NCBI GenBank assembly: GCA_022813865.1
Contig: JALDZX010000099.1
Span: 1-43,820 of the forward strand
From: Xylographa opegraphella
Taxonomy: Eukaryota
Direction: 5' to 3'
Length of the DNA stretch: 43,820 nucleotides
The notes under the pieces are model-generated. The model was not told the DNA's origin and did no database searches. It saw only the letters and a program-made list of their open reading frames with translations. Of this stretch, positions 1-43,820 are shown piece after piece (position 1 is the stretch's first letter; every line of letters begins with the position of its first letter). The translations under genes were made by a program, and so were the position numbers.

Positions 1-60
1 TCGTCCACCTAAAGCTTACGTTCTAGGCGTGCTTGTGTGGTGAGTTGATGAGCCGTAACA
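1..60 (+). mobile_element. 3' part of a 183-bp LTR (family A), cut by the window edge
   Basis: Nearly identical to the last 60 nt of the copy at 6934..7116; ends ...GAGCCGTAACA. Confidence 0.85.
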
Positions 61-684
61 TTAAACGTGCTGAATATATTGAATACGCAAAATACATACA
101 AAGAATATACAAAAATTAAAGATTTTGTGTTAAATTTATAATTTATTAAATAAATAAAAATACTCATTTGATCGAATTTTCGTTTTTTTAATGAAAAAAG
201 TAAAAATTTCGCTTTTTTCGATTTCGCTAAGCGATTATTGAAATAAAATAATAAAATTTTTACGCTTTAAATAAATATAGTTTTTTATAATTAAATATTT
301 TATATAATTTTTAATCGATAATTTCGCGCAAGTTTAACGACGTTTATTTTATAATAAATTTCGTAATTTATATTTTAATATTCTCTTACTTTTTTATATA
401 TATAAAACAGCGTTTAACGCGTATTTTATATATTCGTATTATAAAAGTAAAAGCTTTGCGTTTTATTATATTTCGTTATTATTATATAATTATTACGATT
501 ATATTTTTATTTGCGTTTCGCGTATTTCTCGATCAATATTTAACTTTTTTATTAAAAATAAATATTCATCCCCAGCATCACGCGAAAATATACGGCCACG
601 CTGGGGGTATAAATAAAATTATTACATATTTACAGTTTTTATTTTCGAAAACGCCCCCAGACTTTTTAATGGAATAAAAGAATT
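61..684. repeat. AT-rich hypermutated (RIP-like) transposon relic
   Basis: Very AT-rich, with residual C/G largely in CpG; no credible ORF; flanked by recognisable TE ends. Confidence 0.7.
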
Positions 685-1198
685 CAGCGAATTCCTCGGC
701 TGACGCTGGCGCACCCCCGTAATTCCCCCGCTGTACCCTCTGTCCCCTATTTTATCATTATTCCTCGGCTGACCCTAGTTTGAAGCCCTAAAACGCGTAA
801 TCCTTCATAAAAGTTACGCACGCAGTACCATTATTATTCGCAGCTTTCGCAGCCTTCGCAGCCTTCGCAGCTTCGTAGCCCTCATTCGCAGCCCCTATTC
901 GTAGTTCCCTTCTTCCTTTATAAAACCTTATAATTCCGTCGCAATTTAAGCTTGACTCTTCCTATTTCGAGTTTTAAAAAGGACTTTTTCTAGGCGTAAA
1001 ATATATAAAAATAGCGCGTAACAAGCATGTAACTAAGACAAAAGTATGATAAAAAATATTATTAACTGGTAATCGTAGTAATAAACCAATTAGAATACGA
1101 GAAGCGGGGGTCAGCCGAGGAATAATGACAAAACAGGGGACATAGGGTACAACGGGGGAATTACGGGGGTGCGCCAGGGTCAGCCGAGAAATTCGCTG
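685..1198. mobile_element. Non-autonomous Mutator-like (MULE) MITE, 514 bp
   Basis: 91-bp terminal inverted repeats at 685..775 and 1108..1198 (CAGCGAATT...). Flanking 10-bp duplication TAAAAGAATT (675..684) / TAAAAGAGTT (1199..1208). A 9-11 bp TSD with long TIRs is typical of the Mutator superfamily. Internal TTCGCAGCC-type tandem array at ~837..905. Confidence 0.8.
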
Positions 1199-1534
1199 TA
1201 AAAGAGTTACTGGGGTTTTGGCCAAAAATCCTGCGCTAACAGGCCTGTTTCAGCCAAAGGAGTCTGGGCATTCGAGGCAACGAGCAATGGGCCGTGCACT
1301 ACCTCGGAAAAACTTTTAACAAAGCGGAAGACTGTTATTTACACAACTTGTAACAAGGATTAGCTTCCAGCGACAATATCATAACTTAAGATCCAGAAGC
1401 CTTGGTATTGACCGTGACGCTAATCCTTTCTTGATATCAATTTCTTTTCAATCTGCACGCTTTGCCAAATGAATGCTATAGCTTGAGAAATTTGGATCTT
1501 GGTTCGTCTTGCTGTGGATGGAGGCGTGCAAAGC

Positions 1535-4500
1535 ATGTCCTATGCTGTGCAGACACCAAAACGACCGCTTCCAGGTGGATTTCCAACAACTCCTGCATCA
1601 GGTCGATTCCAGACCGGGGCTTTAAGACCAGTTTTCCGACAAGCAGGTTCAAATTCGGCATTTCAACAATCCGAAATCGTTCTTCAGAATGCCCCGCAGC
1701 AGCAAGCGCAGTCGTCACAACAAAATGGTCAAGTTGCTGCCAAACCTACAACAGGAACTCTTGACCCAATAACGCGTGCCTCAAACACTATTAATGAGAC
1801 TCTAGACCAGGACTCAAGATATCCGGAGCTGGACACGTATCTTGGCCGTAAGTGTCACAAACACCCCATCTCTTCCTCCGAGCCACTCTTAAAAAATCAT
1901 AGAAGGTATATCTTCCGAATATGAAGTCTCGGCAGAAAATGGATGGGCGCCTTTCCAAAAGATCAAAACGTACCCTATACCAGATAGGATTTTTGAACAG
2001 TATAATCACTCACAGCTTCGTACAATGATGGGCCTGTTTGCCGAGTTCAATCATGCCTGGGTGACCATTGATAATGCTTGCTATCTATGGGATTATACCC
2101 ACCCGAATCCTGATCTTGTCGGGTTTGAAGAGCAACCGAACAGCATCACAGCGGTACGGCTTGTCACACCGAAACCTAACATGTTTGTACCATCGGTCAC
2201 GAGACTCCTGGTTGTGGCCACTACTGTAGACTTGATTCTGGTAGGACTATCATCTGACTCGGTACCTACTGGCGGCCGAAAAATATCGTTATACCAGACC
2301 CGCATGTCGCTTCCAATCAAGGGGATGAACGTGGACCTGATCGAAGGTTCGGCAGCTACCGGACGCATATTGTTCACCGGAAGCAGTGACAATGACGTCT
2401 ATGAATTTACGTATCAGCAAGAAGAGAAATGGTTTCAAAGCCGTTGTGGCAAAATCAACCATACAAGCAAGGGAATCACAACGCTGACGCCTTCGTTCCT
2501 TTTCACGCAAAGACAGGAACAAGAACACACCGTGCAGATGGCAATTGATGATTCCCGAAGTCTATTATACACCTTATCTTCGAGATCTACCGTTCGCGTC
2601 TTTCATATGAAATCCGATACAAAGCTCGACCTGGTCATCACAAAGACGCTAACAGATGTTCTTAACAACATAGGCCATATGACCTCTGCTACTGATCTCA
2701 TATCCCGGGATATGGCTATCGTGTCGGTTGCCACAGTATCGGCTCAAGAAGCATCTAAGATACACCTGATAATGACTACATCCACCGGATGTCGATTATT
2801 CATGAGCGCCACAACTTCATATGGCTATGTGATCAAAGACCCGTCCAATGCGCCCACAAGCATGCAATTGCAACATATTAAATTCCCACCACCGATGCAG
2901 CAACAGCCTCCGTCTCATTATACAGTTGGAAACACACAAGGACTGAACACTTCTTCGAGAGCTTCGATACAAACACGGACCGCCTCTAGGTATGCTCCCG
3001 GTTACTCCTTCAGCTTCGTTTCGCGAGAACAGCAAACGCAAACGGATATGCTGTTCATCTCGGCACCAGATGCAGGCCGTATCGCACGGCCTCAAGATCC
3101 GGGCGCTCCGGCACGATTTGCAGAATTGGGGCTATGGTTGAACTTGGGAAGTCGTGCAGAAGATGTCGGTCTTGCGACGCGGCCGTTTTCGGCTTCCTCG
3201 ACCCCAAACGGGTTTGCAAATGAACTTGCTGTACAGTATGATAAGCCTGCGAGCGAAGTTGCGGTTTTGACGAACACTGGAATTCAAACATTTCGCCGAA
3301 GACGACTCGTTGATATGTTCGCCACTATTATCCAGGGACGAGGTGGCACAGACGGCCTAGAAGCAGAAGTGAAGAACTTCATTCGTCTTTACGGTCGTAG
3401 TGAGACAGCTGCGACCGCTCTTGCTGTCGCTTGTGGGCAGGGTCTTGATGTTACCGCCGATTCCCGAGTTGCAAGTATTCTAGATCCAGAAGTCCTTGAG
3501 AAAGCACGGACTGCGTTCGTGGAGTATGGAGGAAAACCTATGCTTAATGAAAATCTGCTTGTCGACCATTTACTGCCTTCCATGGACATGGTCCGTCCTT
3601 CACCTCGCCATGATGGGTTAGCTTTGTACATCGCTCGTCTAGTGCGATCGATATGGAAAGCTCTAGTGGCAGAGGAGTCTGTTTACCCTACCGGAGGCCT
3701 GGCAGTATTGCCAACAGTAAGCTTAACAAAGTTGCGGGAGATTCAGCGTGACTTAACCAAGCTGCAAGAGTTCCTGAAAAGCAACAAGAGTTTCATCGAC
3801 GGTCTGGCTGGACCTGAAGCCTTAGGGAGAGTCACCACTAAGCAAGAAGAGCTGTCTCTACGAGCTGAGCACAGAGCCTTGCACGGACTTGTTCTTCTCC
3901 TTTCCAATATCATTGAAGGTATAGCCTTCGTACTGACCTTATTCGATGAACGTATTGAAGAACTTGTTCTGTCTCTCCCCAACGAAACAAGGCAACAATT
4001 GAGAAATCTAACTTATGCGGGGCTATTTTGCACTACAAACGGCAAGGAGCTAGCAAAAGAATTGGTCAAATCCATTGTCGATCGCAATATTGCAAATGGC
4101 TCTAACGTCGACACGGTAGCGGAAGCTCTAAGAAGAAAATGTGGCAGCTTCTGCAGTGCTGATGATGTGGTCATTTTCAAAGCCCAAGAACAACTGAGAA
4201 GGGCTTCCGAGACTGGCAGTTCCTCAGAACTTGGCAGGAATCTGCTCAACGAGAGTTTGAGGCTATTCAAGCAAGTCTCGGAGACCTTATCGATGGAGCA
4301 ATTACAGTGGGCAGTTGAACAATACCTCCCAATGGAGTTTTATGCTGGTGCAATACAGCTCGCTTTGTCGGTAGCCAAGGAGTCAGATAGAAGTAACAGT
4401 GCTCTAAGCTGGATACAGGAAGGCCGGTCACCATCGGTAGGTCGAAAGTGCATCAACTAACATTTTGTGGTTTTCTAATCCGTCCTAGGATATCCGGGCT

Positions 4501-5773
4501 ATTGCGTTTGCTAACCGCAAGAAATGCTATAATCTTGTCCACCAAGTTATCGCTTCTTTAGATGCAGCCTCCCAGCAGTATCCTGGAATGGTGAATGAAC
4601 TGGAAACAGTAGTATCCAAACGGAGAGCAGAAGCTTATACTGTCATCGATACTTCTGATGACCGGGTATTCCAGATCGACCTATTTGACTGGTACCTTTC
4701 GCAGGATCTGGCGGACCGGTTGCTTAATGTCCAGTCTCCGTATCTCACTACCTACCTTGAAATAAAAGCAAAGGAAGACATTACTCACGCAGATCTGCTG
4801 TGGAGGTACTACAGCCAATGGAGTCGACCTCATGACGCTGCTGTCATTCAATTGAATCTTGCCAAAAGCTCCTTCCCACTTACACTGGATCAACGAATAG
4901 AGTATCTAAGCCAGGCGAAGACCAATGCTTCGGCTTACGCAGCCAGCGTTGGGCGTCAATCACGCCAATCATTATTACGAGAAGTGTCCGTTCTGTTAGA
5001 CATTGCCAATATTCAGGACGACGTTCTACAAAAGCTTAAAGGCGACATTCGAGTCTCACCTGACCGCAAATCAGATGTCCTACGACAAGTCGATGGCCAG
5101 ATCCTTAGTCTTACTGAGGTACTTTATTGTTTGGATCTCCTTGATATCTGCTAACACAGTTCGGTAGCTTTATAACAATTACGCAGACCAAGCCGGTTAC
5201 TACGAAATCTGCCTAATGATCTACCAGGCGGCTGACCACCGTAATCCAATTGACATAAGAAATACGTGGCGGAACCTGTTCGAGAAAAAACACCAAGAAG
5301 CCCTTGATAACGGAGGCGCGTACCCTTACGAGGTGGTCGCCGATACCGTACGCTCCCTTGGCACCCGCTTAGGGCTCTCCGAGTCTACCTTTCCTATTGC
5401 TGATTTAATTCCGCTTCTCGAGCGATACGCGTTCGAGTCACAGCGTGGGATCGGCCCTACCAGTTGGGTGGTCGATACATTCCTTGCTCTGCAAGTACCA
5501 TACGAGATACTGTTTAATGTCTTGGAGGGTATGCTGTATAACGATGAAGCGCCATTCCACGGCGCGAATAAAAAGATAATAGCGGGAGACATGCTGTATG
5601 TTGCGCAGCAATGGTTCGCCGAAACAGCTCGCACTGGGAGAGTGCTTGGCAGTGAGGCCAATGCGGGAGCAATCTCGTCGACACTGGGTACTTTGATGAC
5701 GAATGGACTAGTTGGACAACAGGTAGAAGATTGTAGAGAATTGAGAAGGAATATCGAGCAGTCCCTAAGGTAA
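1535..5773 (+). CDS. NUP170: Nucleoporin Nup170/Nup157 (Nup155 family)
   Basis: Exons 1535..1847, 1903..4436, 4489..5118, 5168..5773 join in frame across GT-AG introns 1848..1902, 4437..4488, 5119..5167. Family motifs: MMGLFAEFNHAWVTIDNACYLWDY, YGRSETAATALAVAC, LRRKCGSFCSADDVVIFKAQE. Confidence 0.95.
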
Positions 5774-5966
5774 CACATGGAAGAGGGTCCTGTTTATAGA
5801 CTAAAAATGCCACTTTTAATGCAATAGGCTTTGCTTGGTTCTATTGAATCCTCGGACAATGAGGACACCTTAATTTTGGTGAGCACGATCGCAGCCTACC
5901 GTACTTCCTGTTACACCAACACGGGTTATCCGAACATCTGTACTGTGCAAAGCATGACACCGTATG

Positions 5967-6046
5967 ATTGCAGCGTAGCTGCTATTAGGATGAGGGGGTC
6001 CAAATCGAAGTTCGGGCGCTAGTGATGCAGTATTTCCGTGCCGAAT
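5967..6046 (-). repeat. Family B dispersed repeat, one half of a split copy
   Basis: Reverse complement of ~11570..11648; the other half resumes at 7455..7588 after the inserted TIR element. Confidence 0.8.
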
Positions 6047-6048
6047 TA

Positions 6049-7452
6049 CTGTGGTTGCAGGGGTAAATAATGTTAGTATACCTTAGCGTCTTGGTACACA
6101 TATATATATGATAACTATATTATTATTATATGTTTATTACAATAATAACACTTTTATTAATACTAAATAAGCAGATTTTAACCCGCGATCAACGTTTTAA
6201 AGTTTATATATTATGTGATTTAAAATTGATTATTTATAAATCGCTAAAATTTTTAATATTATATATCAACAAGTTTAATAAACGTATTATTATAAAACTA
6301 TACATCAGCAACTCCGACGAAATTCAAAATTAGTATTTACAACTTTTTTCGCAAAAATTTAATTAATTCTGTATATAAAAACAAGGAAAATCGACGATTA
6401 TTATTGTTTTTTATTCCTTCCAGATTGAATTTTAATATTTTTAAATTTACTATTCGCAGCGTATTTTAAAAAGTAAAATTTAAACGTTATATCGTACGTT
6501 AAAAAAATAATATTTAAAATAAATCGTTTACTGTGGCTAGTTTGGGCATATTAATATTTTAATTAAATCAAAGAATAATAGTATATTATATTATAAAGCG
6601 ATAAAATTCGAATTTATTTAATAAAATACAAAAAGGTATATATTACACGACGTGTGAACGAAGTTTTTTATTTTAATTATTTACCGTTAAAAGGGTTTAA
6701 TAAAAGCGAATAAATGTTTTAAAGTTATTTTGCAGACAATATTAAAAAATGTAATATTATTATAAAAAAATTGAGGCTTTGTTACGACGATTATTTATTA
6801 TAAAGAAATAATATTTTTTATTAACACGTTTATAAAAATAATTCCTGATTTATTATTTATATAGAATAATACGTTAATATACAAATCGAAAGCGATTTAA
6901 TTAAAATTTTCAACGAGAAGTATTTACGCAATATGTGACGGCTATGACATCAGTCACAAGTAATAGGGGTCGGGCTGGATCAGGACTAGCACCTTTAGTA
7001 TATAGTCTCGCCCATGGAGCAGCCTCACCGCTTCTCCATCTTAATCTGGGTTAAAATCGTCCACCTAAAGCTTACGTTCTAGGCGTGCTTGTGTGGTGAG
7101 TTGATGAGCCATAACACAATAAAATAATTAGTTTCTTTAATTTATTTAAACTTTATTCAGAAATTATAAAGTTAAATAAAAAAATTAATTCAAAATATTT
7201 ATAAAATTCTGAATAATATTTCTAAAAGGCGTTTAAAAATTATAATACAAAAAGCCTGGGATATTATTATACTTAATATATTAAATAAATTTATTAATAG
7301 AATACTTTTTCGCTGTTAAACAATTATAAATACGAAAGGCAAAGTTACAAAATAATAAATACCTTGATATTATTATTGTATATTATATATTATTATATGT
7401 GTAAATGCCAAGACGTTAAAGTGTATTAACATCATTTACCCCTGCAACGAAG
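6049..7452. mobile_element. Degenerate TIR DNA transposon with TA target duplication (Tc1/mariner-like)
   Basis: ~50-bp imperfect TIRs: CTGTGGTTGCAGGGGTAAATAATGTTAG... at 6049 and ...TTAACATCATTTACCCCTGCAACGAAG ending 7452. TA at 6047-6048 and 7453-7454. It interrupts a family B repeat. Interior is AT-rich with no intact transposase. Confidence 0.75.
6934..7116 (+). mobile_element. Solo LTR, 183 bp (family A)
   Basis: TG...CA ends with short inverted termini (TGTGACGGCT / AGCCATAACA), perfect 5-bp TSD CAATA (6929..6933 and 7117..7121), internal TATA-like GTATATAG; two other copies in the window. Confidence 0.9.
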
Positions 7453-7454
7453 TA

Positions 7455-7588
7455 GTACAATATTCCCTTTTTAGGTTTAGTTTCAGCGGGGCCTTGGCTT
7501 TCCACAGCGCTGCATATTTAGCGAGAGGTCCCCTCACGCTGAACCGCGCTGGATCACCTGGTAGTATCGTACGCATGAGATTGCTCGA
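7455..7588 (-). repeat. Family B dispersed repeat, second half of the split copy
   Basis: Reverse complement aligns with 11444..11568 (CTACCAGGT.ATCC...CCTCTCGCT.AATATGCAGCG...GCCAAG.CCC). Confidence 0.8.
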
Positions 7589-7611
7589 AAGCAAGTACAA
7601 ACATAAATATT

Positions 7612-7663
7612 CAGCGAATTCCTCGATTGACCCTGACGCATCCCCGTAATTCCCCGGCTGTAC
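7612..7663 (+). mobile_element. Truncated copy of the MULE TIR
   Basis: CAGCGAATTCCTCGATTGACCCTGACGCATCCCCGTAATTCCCCGGCTGTAC matches 685..736 with a few substitutions; no partner TIR found downstream. Confidence 0.75.
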
Positions 7664-9514
7664 GAAATCACACACCAAAAGTTCTTAAAGTCCGCTAGTA
7701 AAGGATAGCCCCTGCTTACATAATAATATATATACCCCTGTATATATGAATTCTTATATTAATATTCTTTTATAAATATAATTAACAGAGATTACAGTTA
7801 AAATTTACTCGTTAATTTTGTTTAATTATTCTTTAACTCGTTTTAAAATTTCTCCGCTATTTTTGTTAATTTCGCCTCTTTTACCTTTTTGAATTTAAAT
7901 ATTTCATAATTTGTTTTCTCGTTTCAAGCGACCATTTTAAGAGTTTTTTGCCGCGTTTTTTTACGCTTACGGAATTTTTTTAATAAAATATTTCTTTGAC
8001 GAGATAATTTTTTTCGTGTATTTATTTCCTTTTTTAAAATTAATAATGCGTTGAATATAAAAAAGTATTTTCTTAATTGATTATCGATTTTTTATAATAA
8101 TTATTTTAATACAATTTTTATCGTTTATACGCGTTTATTCGAGTTTACGATGCGTTTTATTTAATAATACGTTTTAAAAAAAATTCAATCATAAATTTTA
8201 ATCCCGTTGAAAAATTAAAAATTGCCGAATCAAAGAAGCCTCGTAATTGAATAATTATAAAATATGTATTTAAATATAATATACGTATACGAGCGCGCTG
8301 TTTTTTTATACGAATTTTTTAAATATTTATTAATATACTATTAAATCAAAAAAAATTGGAAATTTTATATTAACATTTTTTCAATCGATTTTTTTATTAT
8401 TACGAGTTAATTTATTAATATTTACTTGCTATTTTTGAATGTATTTTATTCCGAGTTATATTTGCAATTTTAATTTACGAAATTTAATTTTTAATTTATA
8501 TTTCGTTTATTTGAATTTATCACCGCGTTTCATTTCGTAATCGCCGTCGTTGTCGTTTTTTGATTTATCGCGGTCTTTTTCTCTTAAATATAGTAAAGCT
8601 CTTTTTAATATTAAATTTTTTTAAAATTTAAATTTAAAGTATTTTTTCCAGCGCGCGCGTACGTAAATTTTATACAATCGTTTATTAAATTGTCGTTATA
8701 TTTGCGTTAAACCTCGATAATATTCAGAAATAATTAACGTTTTATTCATTTAAATTACTTTTTTAATTTTTGAAGATTTAATATCAATAAACGAGCGCGA
8801 ATTCGTGACGAGTTTTTTTATTAAAACGATAAAAAAAAATTGTTTAATTTACGTTTATTTATATTTAAATTTTTTTAATAATTTTCGTGCGAACGTAATT
8901 AATATTCCTGTTTTTAAATCGATTTTATTTAAGTTTTTATTACGATTTTTATAAACGTATTTTCGTATTCGTTTTTTATTCGTAAAATCGAATTTTTAAA
9001 TCGACCGCTACGAGGCGCGTTTTAAACGTAATAAAATTTATTATTTATTTATTATTTTCGAGATTTTATCTTTTGATTTTCGCACGTTTTTGGAATTATA
9101 AATAAATAATAAAACGATTTTAATGATTTCGCAAATTTATTAATCGTTAATATTTCGATTATAAAAAACGAGAGTTTAAACTTTAAATTTCAGATCGTAA
9201 ATTTTATTACCAGGGAATAGAATAAAAAATCAATATTTAAATAAAATAAAAGCAAAAAGAAATGATAATTTAAATAATAATTCCAATATTTTTTGAATAA
9301 AATTCGATAATTTAAAAACTTGATAATATTATTAATCATTTACTAAATTGTACAAAATTAATATAATATTTCTTTATATATATTATTATTAATTTAATCG
9401 TTCAAATAATATTATTTTAATTTATATATATATAATATTTTTATATGTATTAACAAAATTTATATATATATATATAATATCGCGCGTTTTAACCCTTGTA
9501 AAAATTTTTGTATA
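7664..9514. repeat. AT-rich hypermutated element relic, family not identifiable
   Basis: ~1.85 kb, extremely AT-rich with CpG retention; no ORF of 60 codons or more lies within it. Confidence 0.7.
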
Positions 9515-9697
9515 TGTTACGGCTCATCAACTCACCACACAAGCACGCCTAGAACGTAAGCTTTAGGTGGATGATTTCAACCCAGATTAAGATGGAGAAG
9601 CGATGAGGCTGCTCCATGGGCAAGACTATATACTAAAGGTGCTAGTCCTGATCCAGCCCGACCCCTATTACCTGTGACTGATGTCATAGCCGTCAGA
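9515..9697 (-). mobile_element. LTR copy, 183 bp (family A), inverted orientation
   Basis: Reverse complement differs from 6934..7116 at 7 positions by my manual alignment; no TSD (GTATA vs AAATT). Confidence 0.88.
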
Positions 9698-10046
9698 AAA
9701 TTAAACGTTTAAATTTAATTATTTTAAAGCTTTACGTGCGCGAGGCCTTTTCAGCGACAAAACGCGTAAAATATTTTTATTTTATTTAATGTTGCGAGAA
9801 GAACGAGTTAATACTCTTTAAATATTTAATTAAATTCAATTCGAAATGGGCGTTCGAAATACAATTTACAGCTTTAGAAAGCGAACAGATTTTTAAAATT
9901 CGACGCCAGGTATTATTAAATGTAAAAGCAAGCCTGAAGTAATTACATATTTTACAGACACGAGCATTTATAATAATAATAAATATTTTTCTTCCTTTAA
10001 ACTAAACTATAAACTAAACTATAATATTATAAACAGAGGCTGCAAT

Positions 10047-10171
10047 GCCAAGACCCCCTGAAGTTAAACCTAAAGAGGGAATATTGTACTGATCAAAACG
10101 GATTATTCTACTTCATTAGCGCCCGAAGTTGAATTTGCACCCCCTCATCCTTAGAGCAGCTACGCTGCAAT
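10047..10171 (+). repeat. Family B dispersed repeat, left-truncated copy
   Basis: GCCAAGACCCCCTG...CCCCTCATCCTTAGAGCAGCTACGCTGCAAT matches 11526..11648. Confidence 0.8.
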
Positions 10172-10194
10172 AAAACTTGCATAGCTGTACAGTT

Positions 10195-10587
10195 CCACGA
10201 GATAAACAACAGTATCAGGCCATATCTACCCTTGACGGAGAGACTTGTGAGATTGAGCAAAAAGAAAGGGCTAGGGTGCGAAGATTCCTGCATTCATGAT
10301 AGAATATAATCAACGCCTTCATAAACGCATCAAGGGCGACGATCGAAGAGTCAAAACAACAATGCTCTAAAAGGGAAATGAGAAATGCTTAAACTGAAGA
10401 GGTAGTTGTTGATCTGGAAGAAGGCAAAATGACGGTTGAGTTTTAATCAGTTTTCCATGAAGCAAGTATACGAAATTTGAACCAATAGTTTACAGCTTTG
10501 CGCAAGTCTCCGTATGGTACTTTGTTCTGGCATTCGTTGTGTTCGAGAAAGTTGGTGTAACAACAACACCGGTAGCGGCAGCATCTA
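10195..10587 (+). pseudogene. Possible decayed ORF of unknown origin
   Basis: The frame starting at 10201 reads protein-like (DKQQYQAISTLDGETCEIEQKERARVRRFLHS**NIINAFINASRATIEESKQQ...) with internal TGA, TAG, TAA, TAA stops; no family recognised. Confidence 0.25.
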
Positions 10588-11443
10588 ATCACCTAAACTG
10601 CTTAGGTCCTAGCGTAAATATAGCAGTCCAGCTCACTCGGATCCGACAGCCACACAAACTCGAGACCTATCTTACCTACCAAGTAGCAAATGTCTATTTA
10701 GACGTACCTAGTATTTCTACATCTGTCCTTTTCGACGGCTCAAGGCATAGCGGGCTCGCTTCTTAATCTCTGCAGTTGCTGTATGTATGGTTTCGTATTA
10801 CAAGACTTGCTAGAGAGAAAGACTAGGATTGGCCTTGATACCCTATGGACCTTTTAAGTCCTTCTTTATTTCGACTTTCCCTTCCTAATGGCGAAAAATA
10901 CATTGGCCCTAACCCCAACTTGGCCATCTTCTATTGCTGTGTTTTATCTCATTTTCTTCAGAATAAATGTTGAGTATTTGAGTATTTCATGCCATTTCAG
11001 CTCACTTCCCTACGCACGATGTCCTTCCATTTGTGCTGAGCATTTAATACTAAATACAAAGATATCACTGCACATGTCTTTGTGTGCGTAAGCATATTGA
11101 GTAACCTGGGAGTTCTCCAGGATGAGTCGCAGGAACGTTCGAAGGTTCTGAAAAGTCTCTCGCAATAATGGATCGCATGGTTTTGGTCCTAATAAGACTG
11201 AGTCTTCCAGAACTCGTTGTTGTTTGCGCAGTTTTGTAGTAGCACACCTGAAATCAATTTGTCCTTAAGGCCGCTTTACGGATCTGCTTCATTCCATATT
11301 CAGTTGAAGGGGCATGAGCGAGAATTCTCACCTAAACAGAAGGCAGCAACTCTACTGCGATAACCTGGTCGTCGATTGTGGCGGGTGGGCGATGTTCGCG
11401 AAGTGCTGAAAGACTGCCACCATCTCAGAGAGCCTTTTCAGTA

Positions 11444-11648
11444 TCGAGCAAAAATATTCAAGTCTTCAGCTACCAGGTTATCCGGCGCGAGGGGGCCTCT
11501 CGCTCAATATGCAGCGTTGTGGAGAGCCAAGACCCCCTGGAGCTAAACTTAAATAGGAAATAAAGTACTGATCGGAGCGGATTATCTGCCTCATAGCGCC
11601 CGAAGTTCAATTTGGACCCCCTCATCCTTAGAGCAGCTACGCTGCAAT
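11444..11648 (+). repeat. Family B dispersed repeat, most complete copy (~205 bp), unclassified
   Basis: Homologous to 10047..10171 and to the split minus-strand copy; contains an internal inverted pair TGCAGCGT (11510..11517) / ACGCTGCA (11639..11646). Confidence 0.8.
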
Positions 11649-12285
11649 TATTCGTATCATAAAGCCTCTGCTTACCTATATTGAAGTCCATCCACTGGAA
11701 TAACCATGATCGAGACTCGGCAGAAACGGCAGTGTTATGTCATCTCAGCTGGGTGGCGTCACAAATTTAAAGTTCATAAACCAAAACAACAGATTCTTTT
11801 TCCGCACAACTATTGATTTTGTAACACTTGCGCTTTTCGTGCTCACCTATGCATTTCGGTTGCCCCACGATTGCTTGACTTGGAAGGTGATTATTATGTT
11901 TGTATACTAAGCCGAGGAATCCAATCTTTGAAACTTGCAAGTTGGTACGCTTACGATAGCTACCGTTTGACCTTTATCTTTCCAGCAAACGGGTCCATTA
12001 AGAGCACCACTGTACATTACGGGTTTTATCGAAGATCAACAATATCTATTTTACGCGACATTCACGTCATTACTTGAAAGTGACTTGATGTTTTCCCTGT
12101 AGCCACGGCCATGGTCCAGATCTGGACATCTGCGAAAAGTATGGATCAGGATCAATTGAGATCCAGATCACTCTAGGAATTCTGAGAGACTCACGTTGCC
12201 CACCAACCGCGACAATTGCTGCAAGGAGGCGCCTGGCAATCAGCTTGGTTCACGCATAAGCTGTCCTCCGTCGTGGTCAGGGATC

Positions 12286-18587: not shown

Positions 18588-20004
18588 CTAGTTGTTGCCG
18601 CTCAGCATCGAGCTATCCTCCTCATCGCTGTCCATCTGTTCCGACTTTGCGATGGGCGAATTGGACTCTTCCTTCCTTCCCAGGCCGGCCGCGAGTGCTT
18701 TGCCGCAGCCTTTTACCAAGATGTGTCTCTGGCGCTTTGTGTCAGCAAATGGGTTGGGGTAGGTTTGGGAGATGGACATCGGGGTGAGAACAGACCTTGA
18801 GTGCATCTTTCCTCGAAAAGCTCTTCTCACAATGGCCGCACGGAAATGGCTTTACAGCCAAATGGATCCGCTTATGCCTTTTCAGGTCATGGTTGCGGTT
18901 GAAACTCTGGGGGCACTGATCACACTTGAACGGGCGATCGTTCGGTGGCGCTTGCGGTTGGTTGCCGTACATTTGCATGTGAGCGACATGGCCGCTGTTG
19001 AACGGGGGTATCATGCCTCCCATCCCGCTCACGAGCTGCAGATTACCTCCAGGGCTATGAAGGTTGGACATGACTGGGCCGGGCATGCCGGACATGCCCG
19101 GTAGCGGGTAATTGTAAGGTCGTGGATACTGCACTTGCTGTGCGGATAACGGCTGCATCATAGGAGGTTGCGTCGACGTTGGCGAGAGTTTGGGCCCCGC
19201 ACTCATGGGGCTCTGTTGATGAGGAGATGGAATGGTAAAGGCCGGGAAATGGGTTTGATGCGGAGTGGACGATGGATTCGATCCATTGTAATACGTCGGT
19301 GTCGGAGGTGGACGTTGCATGTACGCTTCCGCCGGGTTTCCCGGGGATGGCTGAGTAGTGACCGCTGGCATTGGTGTCTGTGCGTTGATGAAACTCAACT
19401 GTGGGTGTGGCTGAGGAGCCGGAGCGGGAACGCCCCCGGAACCAGACATCGAGCTTGTTGAAAATGGTGGGAGCGAGGAGAACTCGTATGGTGGAGGCGG
19501 AGGCAGACCATCCGAGGTCGCGGGGGAGTTGGTGTTGTTCCGGACCATCGTATTGAGCGAGGGAGAGAAAAGTCCCCTTGGCGGAGGAAAGAGAGGGTTG
19601 CTGAAAGCGTTTTGTGACCACGGCTGTGGAGTGTTCCCCGTCGGGAACGCGAATGGTGTCAAGCCGCTGCCGGGTAAGGGCCAATAACCGTTCGGAGTAA
19701 AGGGCGGTTGACCGTGGCTGGCCGCAGTGACGTTGCCGCTGCTGGCACCCGATAGCATCGGAGTGAGGCTGTCGCCCGGTACTTGGCCGGGAGGGGTCAG
19801 CAAGTTCCCCGGGTTGAACACGCCTTGTCCCATTTGAGGCACAGCGACGGTGGAGATTGGAGCGAACTTTCCCGACAGCGGAGGCGGGGGGAGTTCAAAA
19901 TTCGGGAGATTCGAAGCAGCACTCCGGCGAGCGGTAAAGCTTGATGGGGCTGCCATCGGCTCCATGTTCGAGCTCATACCGGGCTGCTGCATGACGGTCG
20001 TCAT
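18588..20004 (-). CDS. C2H2 zinc-finger transcription factor (two C-terminal fingers, Pro/Ser-rich N-terminus)
   Basis: RPFKCDQCPQSFNRNHDLKRHKRIHLAVKPFPCGHCEKSFSRKDALK|RHILVKGC across intron 18729..18795. First in-frame ATG at 20004; the frame stays open up to 20346 (possible ACG start at 20289). Confidence 0.92.
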
Positions 20005-21006
20005 TGTGTATGGCTGTCTCGTCCCGGTCGACGGCTTGTATGGATCGCTCTCCAGACCTGGCGGAGTGGGGAGTGTATGTACGGGAGGATTTGATAATGA
20101 CGAGGAAGCCGAACCAGGCCAGTATTGACCGGCCTGCGTTTGTGTGAAATCCAGCGAGGGCAACTTCGATCTGGAGCCCAGCGCGGGCTTCAGCACGGGC
20201 GAATAGCCTTCCGATATTGATCCGCCAGTAAGGGTCGGCGGAAGTCGAAGGAGGAGGCTACCTACTGGATTCTCGAAAAGGGTCGCCGTGGTGGATGGGT
20301 TCTGAAATGAAATGTCTAAAGAAGTTCGATACTGCTGCGGTGGGTTTCAATAGCAGACTCGAGCGAATGCTTTGTCCTGAAAGACACCCGTCGACCTTGT
20401 TAGGTCCAGCTTTGTTCGACCAGCTCCCGTGCACACGACGGCCGTGTCTCCGATGGCAACGCAATCCAATCCACCTTTCACGTCAAATCGGGTACAAGGT
20501 AGGATTGTGACGGGCGTGTGGAGGAATGGCACGCGAAAGGCAGTGGATCGCAGTGTGGTCGAGCCGAGAGATTGACGTGGACGCGCTGAAGCAGGTGAAG
20601 TGAAGTCGAGGCTACCTACCGTTCACGAAGCCTGCGAGGGTTGGTGATGCAGAACGAAGCGATGGCAACAATGCGGACGATTGAAGATATGGCTAGGATG
20701 TTTCTTGGTCGCTTCAGTTGCGGAGGGCAAGCTCTGGGCCCAGGATTGTGGTCGACGGCGGGCGATCGCAACGAGATCCCGGTTTTGAGTTTGAGGATGA
20801 TCTTCGCTGTGGACGACGAGACCGAGATTGCTTGGAATATGGGATGAGCGCAGGCGCAACACTGGTGGGCCCCTTGTTGCTCGCACCTCTGCCGGTCGGG
20901 AGAGGAGTCGCAGATTCCTGGGAGCTGTGAAGCGTTAGGTCTTTGTGTTTGTCTTCTGGCGGTCGAGCTTGTCTCCCGGGCCTGGCGCTCTTAGAGGAAC
21001 GGAAGG

Positions 21007-21123
21007 CGGTAGGGTTAGGGGGGAGGAGGAGGGGAGGGGAGGGGAAGGCTGGACGCGGGCCTCTCGCGAAGGGGTTAGGGGGGGGGACGGTGGAGGGTTA
21101 GGGGGGGAGGGGGAGGGGGGAGG
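21007..21123 (+). promoter_or_regulatory. G-run tract (G-quadruplex-prone) with three GGGTTAGGG units upstream of the C2H2 gene
   Basis: Many runs of 3 or more G; TTAGGG at 21015, 21075 and 21098. Regulatory role is inferred. Confidence 0.4.
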
Positions 21124-21484
21124 AGATGCGGTACGCACGAGACTTTTTGTAGTAGTGTGCGAGGGCTTTGTGTTGAGTTGATTGCCGGCTTCCAATGCTT
21201 TCGCGTGGGATGAGAGATCCCTTTCATTTGCTCCCCGAACGCGCTAAGATGATAGCTGTGGCCCAAAAGGGGAGTGTGGACGGGAGGTAGGGAAGAGCAG
21301 GGGCCGTGGGCGTGGTGTGTGGGATGGGAAAGTGATCTGAGGGTCCCACGCAGGCGACGCTGCCCACCAGGCGACACGATCCAGCACCAGGCGCGTGCGC
21401 CAGACCAAAAGTGAGAGAAGGAGGGGGGCGAAGCGAAAGATGGACGTCCAACACAGTGACTGTACGAGTCCGTAAGACCGTGGA

Positions 21485-33593: not shown

Positions 33594-35472
33594 ATGGCTT
33601 CTATCCCAGGTACGTATTCAGTTTCAAAACTCTGCCATATGTTATGTAGTAGCTTGCTTATCTCTAAATTAGTCGTCGTGAAGCATCAAGGCAACCGTTA
33701 TGCTGTCAATCTGGACCCTACCTCGACAGGCGAAATCTTCAAATACCAGCTCTTTTCCCTTACCGGGGTAGAGCCAGAAAGGCAAAAGATTCTGGTGAAA
33801 GGTGGTCAGCTCAAAGATGATACTAATCTGGCGTCTCTCAAGGCGAGGCCTGGCCAAACATTCATGATGATGGGAACGCCCGCCACTGGGGACGGAGCAG
33901 TCGCCATCGAGAGACCGAAGGACAAGATTGTATTCTTGGAAGATATGACTTCTGCCGAGGCAGCCAAAATTGAAGGGGCTTTACCCGCCGGACTGCAAAA
34001 TCTTGGAAATACTTGTTACCTAAACTCAACTCTACAGACACTGAGATCTATTCCCGAATTACAGGCCCAACTAGCAAAGTACCCGACACCTACTGCAGCC
34101 AGTAGTACCAGCGGGGTTAACTTAAGTCAGTTTGGTCTCGGAGCCATGAGTAGTTCCTTGGACCTTACAGCGTCCTTACGCGATCTCTACAAGCAAATGT
34201 CGGAGACCCAAGAAGGGTTTCCTCCCCTAGTCTTCCTCGCAGCCTTGCGTGAGCTCTTTCCTCAGTTCGCACAAAGATCTCGCACAGGTCAAGGTTATGC
34301 ACAGCAGGATGCAGAAGAGGCTTGGTCGCAGATTGTCTCTCAGCTTCGACAAAAGCTTAAGATCAAAAAGTCGACCGCCGAGGGTACCGACGCAGATACT
34401 CAGCCATCCCTTGACATATCGTTTATCGATAAGTATTTTGCTGGCCGCTTCGAGACGGTGACGGAGTGCGACGACCAATCCGCCCGAGAATCAGGAGAGG
34501 AAAAAATCAAGGGGGAAGACGTATTCCTCAAACTAGATTGCCACATCAACAAGGACACGAACCACTTGCGGGATGGTATATCAGCTGCTCTTGAGGAGAA
34601 GCTTGAGAAAACATCCCCCGTGCTGGGCCGCGAAGCTGTTTACACAAAAACCTCGCGCATAGCCCGTTTACCGAAATATCTTACAGTCCACTTCGTACGC
34701 TTTTTTTGGAAGCGAGAGGCACAAAAGAAAGCAAAGATTATGCGCAAGGTCACCTTTCCGCCCGAACTCGATGTCGTTGAATTCTGTACCGAGAGTCTAC
34801 GATCTCAACTCGTCCCTGTTCGCGACAAGGTCCGAGAGATTCGGAAGGACGAAGAGGATGTCACACGGGCAAGAAAAAGGCAAAAGACTGCACATAAACA
34901 TGAAGTGGACAGGCAGGCAGAAATGAAGGCGCAAGAACGGACGGACCCAACGAACACCGATTCAGAGCACAAGGGTGAGAAGAAGGTGGACGGCGATGCC
35001 GAAATGACGGACGTGACCTACAAGACGGATGCGGAGTACGAGGCCGAGCGGACCAGATCGATCATGGCAGCCAAGAGAGAATTACTCTCCATCATTGACC
35101 CCGAGTTAGCCAAGGACAATGGAGCGAACAAGTCGGGGGTGTACGAGTTGCGCGGTATCGTCACGCATCAAGGGGCGAGCGCCGACAGCGGGCACTACAC
35201 GGCGTATGTCAAGAAACAAGGTATCCTGGACGCAAAGACGGGCACGAGGAAGGAGGAAGATGGGAAGTGGTGGTGGTTCAACGACGACAAGGTATCCGAA
35301 GTCGAGGCCGAGAAGATCGAAACGTTGTCCGGTGGTGGTACGTTCCCTCCCGTGCGGCTCCTCTCCGTCGGGCACGATTACTGAGGCCTTGTTAGGTGAG
35401 AGCCATTCGGCTCTGATCCTGCTCTACCGAGCAATCGAACTGCCGACGGCGGAAGACATGGCGCAAGAATGA
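33594..35472 (+). CDS. UBP6: Proteasome-associated deubiquitinase Ubp6/USP14
   Basis: N-terminal UBL domain (FKYQLFSLTGVEPERQKILVKGGQLKDD), Cys box GLQNLGNTCYLNS, QQDAEE, His box HQGASADSGHY, WWWFNDDKV. Introns 33610..33672 and 35338..35395. Confidence 0.97.
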
Positions 35473-43632: not shown

Positions 43633-43757
43633 TAGTAAAATCAAAAAAATCGATTACAAAAACCCAAAATCATAATCGATTTTGATTTTAAAAATAATAA
43701 TTATATTCGAATAAAATTTCAAAAATCGTAATCAAAATCGAATAATAAAATCGATTT
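43633..43757. mobile_element. Start of another AT-rich, CpG-retaining repeat; possible DNA-transposon end
   Basis: Abrupt drop in GC at 43633; repeated AATCG motifs; inverted pair 43637..43656 / 43673..43689. Confidence 0.45.
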
Positions 43758-43820
43758 AAAATAAAATAAAATAAAATAAAATAAAATAAAATAAAATAAA
43801 ATAAAATAAAATAAAATAAA
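43758..43820 (+). repeat. (AAAAT)n microsatellite running to the window end
   Basis: At least 12 units. Confidence 0.95.

Follow-up and report, generated by a model that had tools for sequence, protein, structure and literature searches.

Clutterbuck is said to have surveyed, in 2011, the contexts of RIP in about 49 ascomycetes. RIP is usually scored by CpA-based indices, and a preference for CpA is thought to be common across fungi (PMC12543289, in part). The context order in Neurospora is CpA>CpT>CpG>CpC (passages of PMC5496416), which agrees with the original prediction for the DNA described here that Neurospora RIP prefers CpA. CpA and CpT, and not CpG, are given as the targets of RID-type RIP (passages of PMC4352252), and ascomycete RID and DIM-2 are described as favouring non-CG sites (PMC13297926, in part). 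Hypermutation directed at CpG is also on record, at TpCpG in Microbotryum, CpG plus CpA in Aspergillus and CpG in Tuber (passages of PMC4352252 and PMC2621366). Among lichen fungi, Cladonia rangiformis carries RIP relics at GC 10-20% together with RID and DIM-2 homologues (passages of PMC12542154), and large RIP-affected regions occur in Xanthoria (passages of bioRxiv 10.1101/2025.11.25.690456). The context preference is not described in these two reports, the term "CpG" occurring 0 times in their main texts. Literature searches and the passages of the cited papers gave no account of CpG-sparing RIP or of a CpG excess in RIP relics.

We analyzed one 43,820-nt stretch of DNA (contig JALDZX010000099.1, here called the window) from Xylographa opegraphella, a lichen-forming Lecanoromycete with AT-rich blocks in its nuclear genome (Table 1). 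One protein encoded in the window matches, at 100% identity, a protein recorded at NCBI under this species name. The original prediction held that the surviving C and G of these blocks reside mostly in CpG, and our counts confirmed it. The region 7700-9514 (1815 bp, GC 20.0%) contained 90 CpG (observed/expected ratio, 4.97), which accounted for 48% of its C and 51% of its G. The 60 positions from 8941 to 9000 held 6 C, 6 G and 6 CpG as predicted, the surviving run noted near 8650, GCGCGCGCGTACGT, begins at 8651, and the same pattern recurred at 61-560, 6130-6930 and 43640-43757 (obs/exp of 6.43, 3.94 and 7.29, respectively). CpG obs/exp in five AT-rich blocks (GC 17-27%) was 2.4-7.5, which was 4-19 SD above 2000 mononucleotide shuffles per block. 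When the six blocks were pooled on both strands, G followed C in 344 of 760 cytosines (45% versus 10% expected), and CpG obs/exp was 4.65 relative to 0.92 in the GC-normal DNA of the window (10201-43600), the AT-rich side of this comparison being 3.9 kb from a single contig. The density of CpG in the blocks was 44.7/kb as compared to 63.1/kb in GC-normal DNA, meaning that 71% was kept. The corresponding values were 45.4 versus 134.5/kb for CpA+TpG (34%), 46.0 versus 129.1/kb for CpT+ApG (36%) and 16.6 versus 134.7/kb for CpC+GpG (12%). The claim that CpC had been erased therefore stood for absolute density, but relative to base composition CpC was only mildly low (obs/exp 0.80-0.85), with CpA at 0.57 and CpT at 0.56-0.58. 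TpA, at 0.94, was not enriched. GC content changed abruptly at the block borders, from about 50% to 20%. Short CGCG runs were present in the blocks, and GpC, which the original prediction had not mentioned, was likewise in excess (obs/exp 2.25).

Table 1. AT-rich blocks and repeats in the window
Feature	Position	Strand	Remarks
Block A, AT-rich, CpG-retaining	61..560	.	GC 18%, 26 CpG, obs/exp 6.43, z = 12.0; CC and GG absent
Block B, AT-rich, CpG-retaining	6110..6935	.	GC 19.6%, 31 CpG, obs/exp 3.9, z = 9.2; inside the 1.4-kb TIR element
Block C, AT-rich, CpG not enriched	7130..7393	.	GC 15%, 3 CpG, z = 1.3
Block D, AT-rich, core of the finding	7720..9501	.	GC 19.8%, 90 CpG, obs/exp 5.18, z = 18.7
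Block E, AT-rich, weaker CpG excess	9696..10053	.	GC 27%, 16 CpG, obs/exp 2.39, z = 4.1
Block F, AT-rich, contig end	43637..43757	.	6 CpG, obs/exp 7.5, z = 6.4; followed by (AAAAT)n to 43820
1.4-kb element with block B, c copy and block C	6054..7448	+	55-nt inverted repeats at 6054-6108 and 7394-7448
c element, GC-normal short repeat (~194 bp) amid AT-rich DNA	6936..7129	+	not hypermutated
Third c element copy, flanked by blocks D and E	9502..9695	-	
c element copy, truncated at contig end	1-61	+	
e element, MITE-like	685..1198	+	91-nt TIRs, one at 685-775 and the other at 1108-1198
e element, partial copy	7600..7663	+	about 55 bp left of the block D edge
a repeat family, intact copy	11485..11654	+	depth ~3,400, roughly 20 copies
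a repeat, further copy	10041-10176	+	
a repeat copy, interrupted by the 1.4-kb element	5961-6044 plus 7454-7539	-	

A lichen sample contains the DNA of several partners, and the mitochondrial DNA of fungi is rich in AT. We considered whether the blocks could stem from inserted mitochondrial DNA or from a wrongly assembled piece of a different lichen member, and rejected this as extremely improbable. The unitig depth of the blocks (162-179) was the same as that of the genes (150), indicating that both belong to the same genome, and the unitigs extended out of the blocks into flanking repeats. Furthermore, a Pfam search of translated 5950-10200 and 1-1300 (E <= 1) gave no mitochondrial gene, and an Rfam search of 1-12000 (E <= 0.1) returned 0 matches.

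The index thresholds used to score RIP are a TpA/ApT of at least 0.89 and a (CpA+TpG)/(ApC+GpT) of at most 1.03. Blocks A, B and D lay within this range, with TpA/ApT of 0.96-1.05, (CpA+TpG)/(ApC+GpT) of 0.58-0.66 and CRI of +0.32 to +0.44 (0.96, 0.63 and +0.32 for block D), relative to 0.71, 1.19 and -0.48 in GC-normal DNA. The dominance of CpA-to-TpA changes that marks canonical RIP was not found, since CpA and CpT were equally depleted (0.57 and 0.56) and TpA was 0.94. The blocks also lacked the CpG depletion that methylation-driven decay, whether MIP-like or by 5mC deamination linked to Masc2 or Dnmt5, leaves in repeats, given the pooled CpG ratio and the density noted above.

In forward simulations, the GC-normal DNA of the window was subjected to C-to-T changes until its GC content reached 20%, an approach that presupposes ancestors resembling the present GC-normal DNA. 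Decay of CpA only halted at GC 41%, while context-free decay gave a CpG obs/exp of 0.9. Decay restricted equally to CpA and CpT left CpC at 2.5 and reached a floor at about GC 21%, so CpC must also be a target here. With Neurospora-like context weights of 64/18/13/5 for CpA/CpT/CpG/CpC, the simulated DNA had, at GC 20%, a CpG obs/exp of 1.8 (18 CpG/kb), CpC of 2.0 and TpA of 1.26. CpH decay in which CpG was weighted at 0.05 and the 5'-G factor was set to 0.4 yielded CG 4.4-4.6, GC 2.2-2.4, CA 0.53-0.55, CT 0.68-0.70 and CC 0.51-0.64 as compared to the observed 4.65, 2.25, 0.57, 0.56 and 0.80, respectively. This two-parameter model matched ten symmetrised dinucleotide ratios, the GpC excess being fitted only by the extra parameter of 5'-G protection. 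The spectrum was fitted only when CpA, CpT and CpC were all targeted, when the relative CpG rate was ~0-0.1 and when a 5' G protected ~2.5-fold.

Block A was covered, at a likeness of at least 80%, by 2-8 further contigs from the sequencing run, indicating that it is a multi-copy repeat. Relative to its paralogues it had transitions at 280 (CpT), 329 (CpA), 453 (CpT) and 536 (CpT), with at least 8 differences and at least 4 transversions, among the 40 of 244 difference rows listed. All the paralogous contigs over 1-12000 taken together gave 127 transitions and 67 transversions. Block B lies in a 1.4-kb insertion whose host site is an a-family repeat, and paralogous contigs connect 6045 straight to 7454. 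The TIRs of this element differed by 6 transitions (3 CpA and 3 CpT) and were otherwise identical in the counted columns. At the block margins, families e and b showed 12 transitions (CpA 3, CpT 5, CpC 4, CpG 0) versus 2 other differing columns, with 34 CpG copy-sites at risk (one-sided Fisher p = 0.03); counts for family a (16 CpG, 16 CpC, 6 CpT, 3 CpA) were excluded because a half-copy was misplaced (columns 72-100). The partial e copy next to block D kept its CpG sites intact and had 4 private transitions (CpC x3, CpT x1). Block D itself had a depth of 205-295 relative to a single-copy depth of ~150 and is thus mostly single copy at a likeness of at least 80%. Self-comparison of the window gave no credible AT-rich paralogue pair, only low-complexity matches at 62-69%, and among the sequencing runs only the probable source run contained the stretch. 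Two others, X2 and X3, yielded short fragments that were for the most part less than 90% alike, with no long piece across an AT-rich block. Neither the self-comparison nor the sequencing runs contained an unmutated progenitor of any AT-rich block, and the support for C-to-T change in the blocks is indirect. Twelve six-frame translations of 5950-10200 and 1-1300 (stops as X) matched 0 Pfam families at E <= 1, so that protein homology lends no support to a transposon origin.

Some of these results would also fit blocks that were never hypermutated. They could be non-coding DNA that has been AT-rich from the start, for instance the inside of a non-autonomous element, an old intergenic stretch or a satellite-like sequence, in which CpG and GpC were kept or made by another force, for example selection on protein-binding sites that contain CpG or local (CG)n slippage. 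Neither a progenitor nor a coding relic was found, block D is nearly single copy, TpA is not raised, GpC is enriched along with short CGCG runs and block C is AT-rich without a CpG excess, all as expected of such DNA. We consider this origin improbable because, in line with C-to-T decay, CpA/TpG and CpT/ApG are scarcer than ApC/GpT and TpC/GpA, and because a two-parameter decay model fits ten dinucleotide ratios. The multiple copies of block A, the position of block B within a mobile insertion, the divergence of the insertion TIRs solely by CpA and CpT transitions and the abrupt GC steps also argue against it, as does the finding that the AT-poor stretches of 80 related loci have no such CpG excess. 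The missing progenitor and Pfam match, the near single copy of block D and the ordinary CpG content of block C nevertheless count against the RIP reading as well, and so do the TpA of 0.94, which is unlike CpA-dominant RIP, and the need for CpC as a target.

The CpG-sparing pattern was shared by 0 of the 80 related loci. The related locus L001 had the inverse pattern, with zero CpG and two copies that differed by 222 transitions versus 2 transversions. Its composite RIP indices were negative, CpG was lost first in its fungus, and 12 translations of its blocks matched 0 Pfam families at E <= 0.01.

The depth of the c element (20,800-50,300 versus ~150) suggests roughly 140-340 copies, and two of its copies in the window form a 194-nt inverted repeat that is 94% complementary (identity 94.8%). 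Rfam gave no match in 1-12000, so a SINE derived from tRNA or 5S RNA cannot be recognised in it. In this young, high-copy element CpG sites held 3 of 6 transitions, indicating that CpG is not immutable in the genome of X. opegraphella. The spared CpG of the blocks could reflect, as the original prediction proposed, methylation of CpG in repeats beforehand by a maintenance enzyme such as Dnmt5, if 5mCpG were not a substrate and only unmethylated CpH were converted. Such a shield would yield the observed footprint and would account for the CpG transitions of the c element as ordinary 5mC decay; Dnmt5 is found in many ascomycetes, with loss mainly in Sordariomycetes (passages of PMC12543289). However, spontaneous deamination should erode methylated CpG (PMC13297926, in part), yet the CpG density of the relics is 71% of that of GC-normal DNA. 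If RIP consists of methylation followed by deamination, we infer that pre-methylated CpG should mutate more, not less. CpG methylation also offers no explanation for the 5'-G protection behind the GpC fit, and it is less economical than an intrinsic preference given the non-CG preference of RID and DIM-2 (passages of PMC13297926 and PMC4352252), so we regard the shield as unlikely. An identical footprint would be left by context-specific repair, in which all C would be deaminated, T:G and U:G mismatches at CpG would be restored by a TDG/MBD4-type glycosylase and only the changes at CpH would be fixed. TDG and MBD4 do prefer the CpG context. Repair of this kind would explain neither the effect of a 5' G at non-CpG cytosines nor the CpG-first loss in the fungus of L001, unless lineages differ in repair, and it seems to us a rather remote explanation.

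We favour RIP by a mutator that intrinsically and strongly prefers non-CpG sites in X. opegraphella, a reading to which we assign a probability of roughly 60%. The mutator would convert cytosines preceding A, T or C, a 5' G would reduce its action about 2.5-fold, and its rate at CpG would be only about 0-10% of that at CpH. Such a mutator acting on CpH would remove ~60% of G+C while leaving CpG near its original density, so that the C and G that survive come to lie chiefly in CpG. The cause is most likely an intrinsic non-CpG substrate preference of RID/DIM-2-type enzymes and not a protection of CpG. The GC-normal ancestry of the blocks, RIP as the process and the responsible enzyme are all three what we infer from the composition, the simulations and the repeats. 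The original prediction was thus partly supported. Its first half, a repeat-directed C-to-T system that acts on CpH and spares CpG, found indirect support: the simulations, the RIP indices, the copies of block A, the insertion carrying block B and the 12 of 12 non-CpG transitions at the margins agreed with it, while the points counted above against RIP did not.

The two fungi may also represent Lecanoromycete RIP-type mutators with opposite rules, the Xylographa mutator acting on non-CpG only (at least 10-fold against CpG) and that of the L001 fungus exhausting CpG and CpC first. The flip would be a switch of enzyme or pathway (RID-, DIM-2- or Dnmt5-linked), perhaps combined in Xylographa with a shield that maintenance methylation gives to CpG; we hold this idea to be speculative and doubtful. 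If it were true, Xylographa RIP relics would still carry their whole complement of methylatable CpG, and the standard RIP indices would overlook part of such hypermutated DNA. Lasallia pustulata and Letharia columbiana, 2 of the 3 Lecanoromycetes among the rows listed, bear the label "no_rip" (PMC12543289, in part). With a footprint that leaves CpG almost untouched here and the reverse one, with negative indices, at L001, surveys based on indices or k-mers can give a wrong picture of RIP in these fungi. The context rule would directly reflect which substrates the RID/DIM-2-type enzymes choose, and the chemistry of these enzymes is not yet settled; naturally occurring variants that follow opposite rules would make good material for swapping experiments. 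A relic whose CpG is kept also retains targets of CpG methylation, which bears on the marking of heterochromatin after RIP.

The blocks resemble the products of RIP in Neurospora crassa, which depends on RID and/or DIM-2 and acts before meiosis, in that C:G-to-T:A changes would have turned repeats into sharp-edged AT-rich relics, the indices are positive and CpG is not the preferred context. They differ in that CpA does not dominate, CpC is targeted although Neurospora prefers it least, and CpG is avoided about 10-20-fold, as judged from the observed CpG of 4.65, CpC of 0.80 and TpA of 0.94 versus 1.8, 2.0 and 1.26 with Neurospora-like weights. RIP in Botrytis, Sclerotinia and Magnaporthe alters CpA as well as CpT, as here, whereas CpC is an additional target in our window and a CpG surplus is not reported in the passages of that study (Amselem et al. 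2015, PMC4352252). The sharp borders and the unmutated short repeats of the window recall Cladonia rangiformis, where the AT-rich regions are TE-derived and small DNA transposons inside them escape mutation (passages of PMC12542154). The hypermutation of Microbotryum, Aspergillus and Tuber would be similar in its repeat-associated C-to-T bias and its strong context rule; however, those systems deplete CpG, which L001 with its zero CpG resembles, whereas the window keeps it.

The window is one complete contig of 43,820 bp. We analyzed its base composition and identified six sharply bounded AT-rich blocks (A to F), in which the GC content dropped from ~47-60% to 17-27%. The long ORFs of the window encode ordinary fungal proteins, namely a Nup170-type nucleoporin, a protein kinase with a fungal KA1 domain, a C2H2 zinc-finger protein and a ubiquitin hydrolase. 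The ubiquitin hydrolase (33594-35384) was 100% identical to an NCBI protein of Xylographa opegraphella, followed by matches in other Xylographa species (86-87%) and then in further lichen-forming Lecanoromycetes. When the contigs of the probable source run, the only public run that contains this DNA, were aligned to positions 1-12000, the unitigs with AT-rich blocks had a depth of 162-179 relative to a single-copy depth of ~150, indicating that the blocks are part of the same genome. Both assembly breaks of the contig fall at hypermutated or repeated DNA: its start (1-60) lies inside a copy of the 'c' repeat, and its 3' end (43758-43820) is an (AAAAT)n run that follows an AT-rich block.

AT-rich blocks and repeats of the window and of the related metagenome locus L001
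Feature	Position (strand)	Description
AT-rich block A	61-560
AT-rich block B	6110-6935
AT-rich block C	7130-7393
AT-rich block D	7720-9501
AT-rich block E	9696-10053
AT-rich block F	43637-43757
'c' element, ~194 bp	1-61 (+); 6936-7129 (+); 9502-9695 (-, inverted)	GC-normal; short imperfect terminal inverted repeats
'e' element, MITE-like	685-1198	91-nt terminal inverted repeats, 93% complementary
'e' partial copy	7600-7663	just left of block D
'a' family	11485-11654; 10041-10176; split copy 5961-6044 + 7454-7539
1.4-kb element	6054-7448	55-nt inverted ends (6054-6108, 7394-7448); interior holds block B, a 'c' copy and block C
L001 AT-rich blocks	L001:6501-9600; L001:19001-21350	locus of a lichen-type fungus, ubiquitin hydrolase 72% identical
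L001 aligned copies	7278-9650 (+); 18949-21340 (-)	one 2.4-kb repeat, inverted, ~90% identical

The original prediction held that CpG was kept in 7700-9514, and we counted 90 CpG there, with an observed/expected ratio of 4.97. Its finer details were exact as well, since 8941-9000 has 6 C, 6 G and 6 CpG and the run GCGCGCGCGTACGT occurs at 8651. Relative to 2000 shuffles per block, the CpG counts were above expectation by 12.0 (A), 9.2 (B), 18.7 (D), 4.1 (E) and 6.4 (F) SD. Block C (GC 15%), unlike its neighbours, had no CpG excess (3 CpG, 1.3 SD in the same number of shuffles) and may have another origin or a CpG-poor ancestor. On both strands of the pooled blocks, G followed 344 of 760 cytosines (45%, against 10% expected), and the ratios for CpA, CpT and CpC were 0.57, 0.58 and 0.85; the CpG ratio of the GC-normal DNA (10201-43600) was 0.92. 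The density of CpG was 44.7/kb in the AT-rich blocks and 63.1/kb in the GC-normal DNA (71% kept), while the corresponding values were 45.4 and 134.5/kb for CpA+TpG (34% kept), 46.0 and 129.1/kb for CpT+ApG (36%), and 16.6 and 134.7/kb for CpC+GpG (12%). GpC was also enriched in the blocks (2.25). The retention of CpG in the AT-rich blocks is confirmed, and all of the block evidence comes from ~3.9 kb of one contig.

C-to-T and G-to-A decay was modelled by simulation, starting from 1-kb pieces of the GC-normal DNA of the window and ending at the observed GC content of 20%; the fits presuppose that the ancestors were similar to the present GC-normal DNA. Decay at CpA only stalled at GC 41%, decay at CpA and CpT left CpC at 2.5, and context-free decay gave a CpG ratio of 0.9 (9 CpG/kb). 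Decay with Neurospora-like context weights (64/18/13/5) gave ratios of 1.8 for CpG, 2.0 for CpC and 1.26 for TpA. The observed CpG ratio of 4.65 (47 CpG/kb) was reached only if CpA, CpT and CpC were all targets and CpG mutated at 0-0.1 of their rate. When a 5' G was also made to protect cytosine 2.5-fold, GpC reached 2.2-2.4 and the fit to ten dinucleotide ratios improved to a summed squared log-distance of 0.12-0.28, whichever ancestor set was used. The standard RIP indices were positive in blocks A, B and D, with TpA/ApT of 0.96-1.05, (CpA+TpG)/(ApC+GpT) of 0.58-0.66 and a composite index of +0.32 to +0.44, as compared to -0.48 in the GC-normal DNA.

A search of Pfam with 5950-10200 and 1-1300 translated in six frames (12 translations, stops read as X) and of Rfam with 1-12000 found no family match, and no GC-normal progenitor of any block was found within the window. 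We accordingly base the C-to-T origin of the blocks on their composition, on the modelling and on the sequence contexts. The predicted C-to-T change at CpH gained indirect support from the simulations, the RIP indices and the contexts at the block margins, which together suggest that the blocks arose in this way.

Short GC-normal repeats interrupt the AT-rich DNA and resemble short, recent insertions that evade the mutator. Such escape is described for small DNA transposons of Cladonia rangiformis (PMC12542154). The 'c' copies were 94-98% alike, with AT-rich DNA around each, and their depth of 20,800-50,300 in the source run suggests roughly 140-340 genomic copies. The element had no Rfam match and probably represents a young MITE, one that inserts into hypermutated DNA and itself escapes the hypermutation. 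Inside 'e', a CAGCCTTCG-like unit forms a short tandem array at ~838-880. The split 'a' copy was caused by the TIR-bounded 1.4-kb element; the depth over 'a' was ~3,400, and source-run contigs that join 6045 straight to 7454 represent 'a' copies without the insertion, indicating that block B lies within a mobile insertion. Block A was covered by 2-8 extra contigs and is thus a repeat, and block D was nearly single copy at a likeness of at least 80%.

We compared repeat copies for the context of their differences, leaving out the 'a' family, whose alignment was unreliable. Between the ends of the 1.4-kb element there were 6 transitions (3 CpA, 3 CpT) and no other difference in the counted columns; the 'e' copies differed by 6 transitions (4 CpC, 2 CpT), 4 of them private to the copy left of block D. 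None of these 12 transitions was at CpG, with 34 CpG copy-sites at risk versus 108 others (one-sided Fisher p = 0.03). Among the 40 of 244 difference rows listed, at least 8 separated block A from its paralogues: 4 transitions (CpT, CpA, CpT, CpT) and 4 transversions. The young 'c' element, by contrast, had 6 transitions, 3 of them at CpG, a context that made up 40 of 212 copy-sites (p = 0.08 for excess), indicating that CpG is mutable in ordinary divergence and spared by hypermutation only. This hints at ordinary CpG hypermutability in RIP-escaping repeats, possibly through methylation. Position 9572 holds one of the 'c' CpG transitions, and almost every other genomic copy has C there.

RIP by RID/DIM-2-type enzymes is the most economical reading, with a substrate choice in this lineage of H-C-H and near exclusion of CpG. 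DIM-2 and RID of Ascomycota are described as preferring non-CG sites, DIM-2 favouring CpT (2026 review, PMC13297926), and RID-type RIP as targeting CpA and CpT, not CpG (Amselem et al., PMC4352252). The same footprint is expected if CpG methylation shields CpG from the mutator, as originally proposed, or if CpG-specific mismatch repair restores it, and sequence alone does not separate these. However, methylated CpG should decay on its own, and the 5'-G effect is explained by neither shield nor repair, so we ranked both below RIP by RID/DIM-2-type enzymes.

Among relatives, we examined 80 metagenome loci (1.05 Mb) around ubiquitin hydrolase orthologues (54-73% amino-acid identity). Blocks of at least 300 bp with GC below 30% were present in 4 of the 80; a looser cut (36%, 250 bp) yielded 26 blocks in 15 loci, none with a CpG ratio above 1.7. 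Three loci (L022, L023 and L027) had the canonical pattern, with CpA of 0.31-0.37, TpA of ~1.5 and CpG of 0.38-1.34. A more distant locus (63% identity) has a 950-bp block of GC 18% (L055:4551-5500), with GpC 2.73, CC/GG 2.5 and CpG 1.69, which is a fourth kind of footprint. The blocks of L001 were the inverse of the window, with 0 CpG in 5,450 bp (GC 24%), CC and GG ratios of 0.03-0.05, CpA and CpT ratios of 1.2-1.4 and negative composite indices (-0.57, -0.69). Its copies differed by 222 transitions versus 2 transversions. On the de-mutated consensus, the differing sites were 24/24 CpG, 10/16 CpC, 92/325 CpA and 95/329 CpT, and 12 aligned CA/TG pairs represent former CpG mutated on opposite strands. 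These differences indicate true RIP-type hypermutation that exhausted CpG and CpC first, a type that standard RIP indices would overlook. Judging from these loci, related lichen fungi evidently follow sharply different context rules, and the rule of the window does not hold generally for AT-rich DNA of the group. The inverse footprint of L001 adds to the interest of the window's.

In the literature searched, as far as its sources were available, neither CpG-sparing RIP nor RIP relics with surplus CpG were described, and an earlier description is possible; the main text of two lichen-genome papers describing RIP does not mention CpG. We class the footprint of the window as RIP with an unusual context rule. 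It is unlike that of Neurospora, with the order CpA>CpT>CpG>CpC, and that of Trichoderma reesei, where CpA and CpG are about equal (both PMC5496416). It also differs from Stagonospora, whose repeats are CpG-depleted (PMC2621366), and from the CpA preference that a kingdom-wide survey found common to RIP-like defences (PMC12543289).
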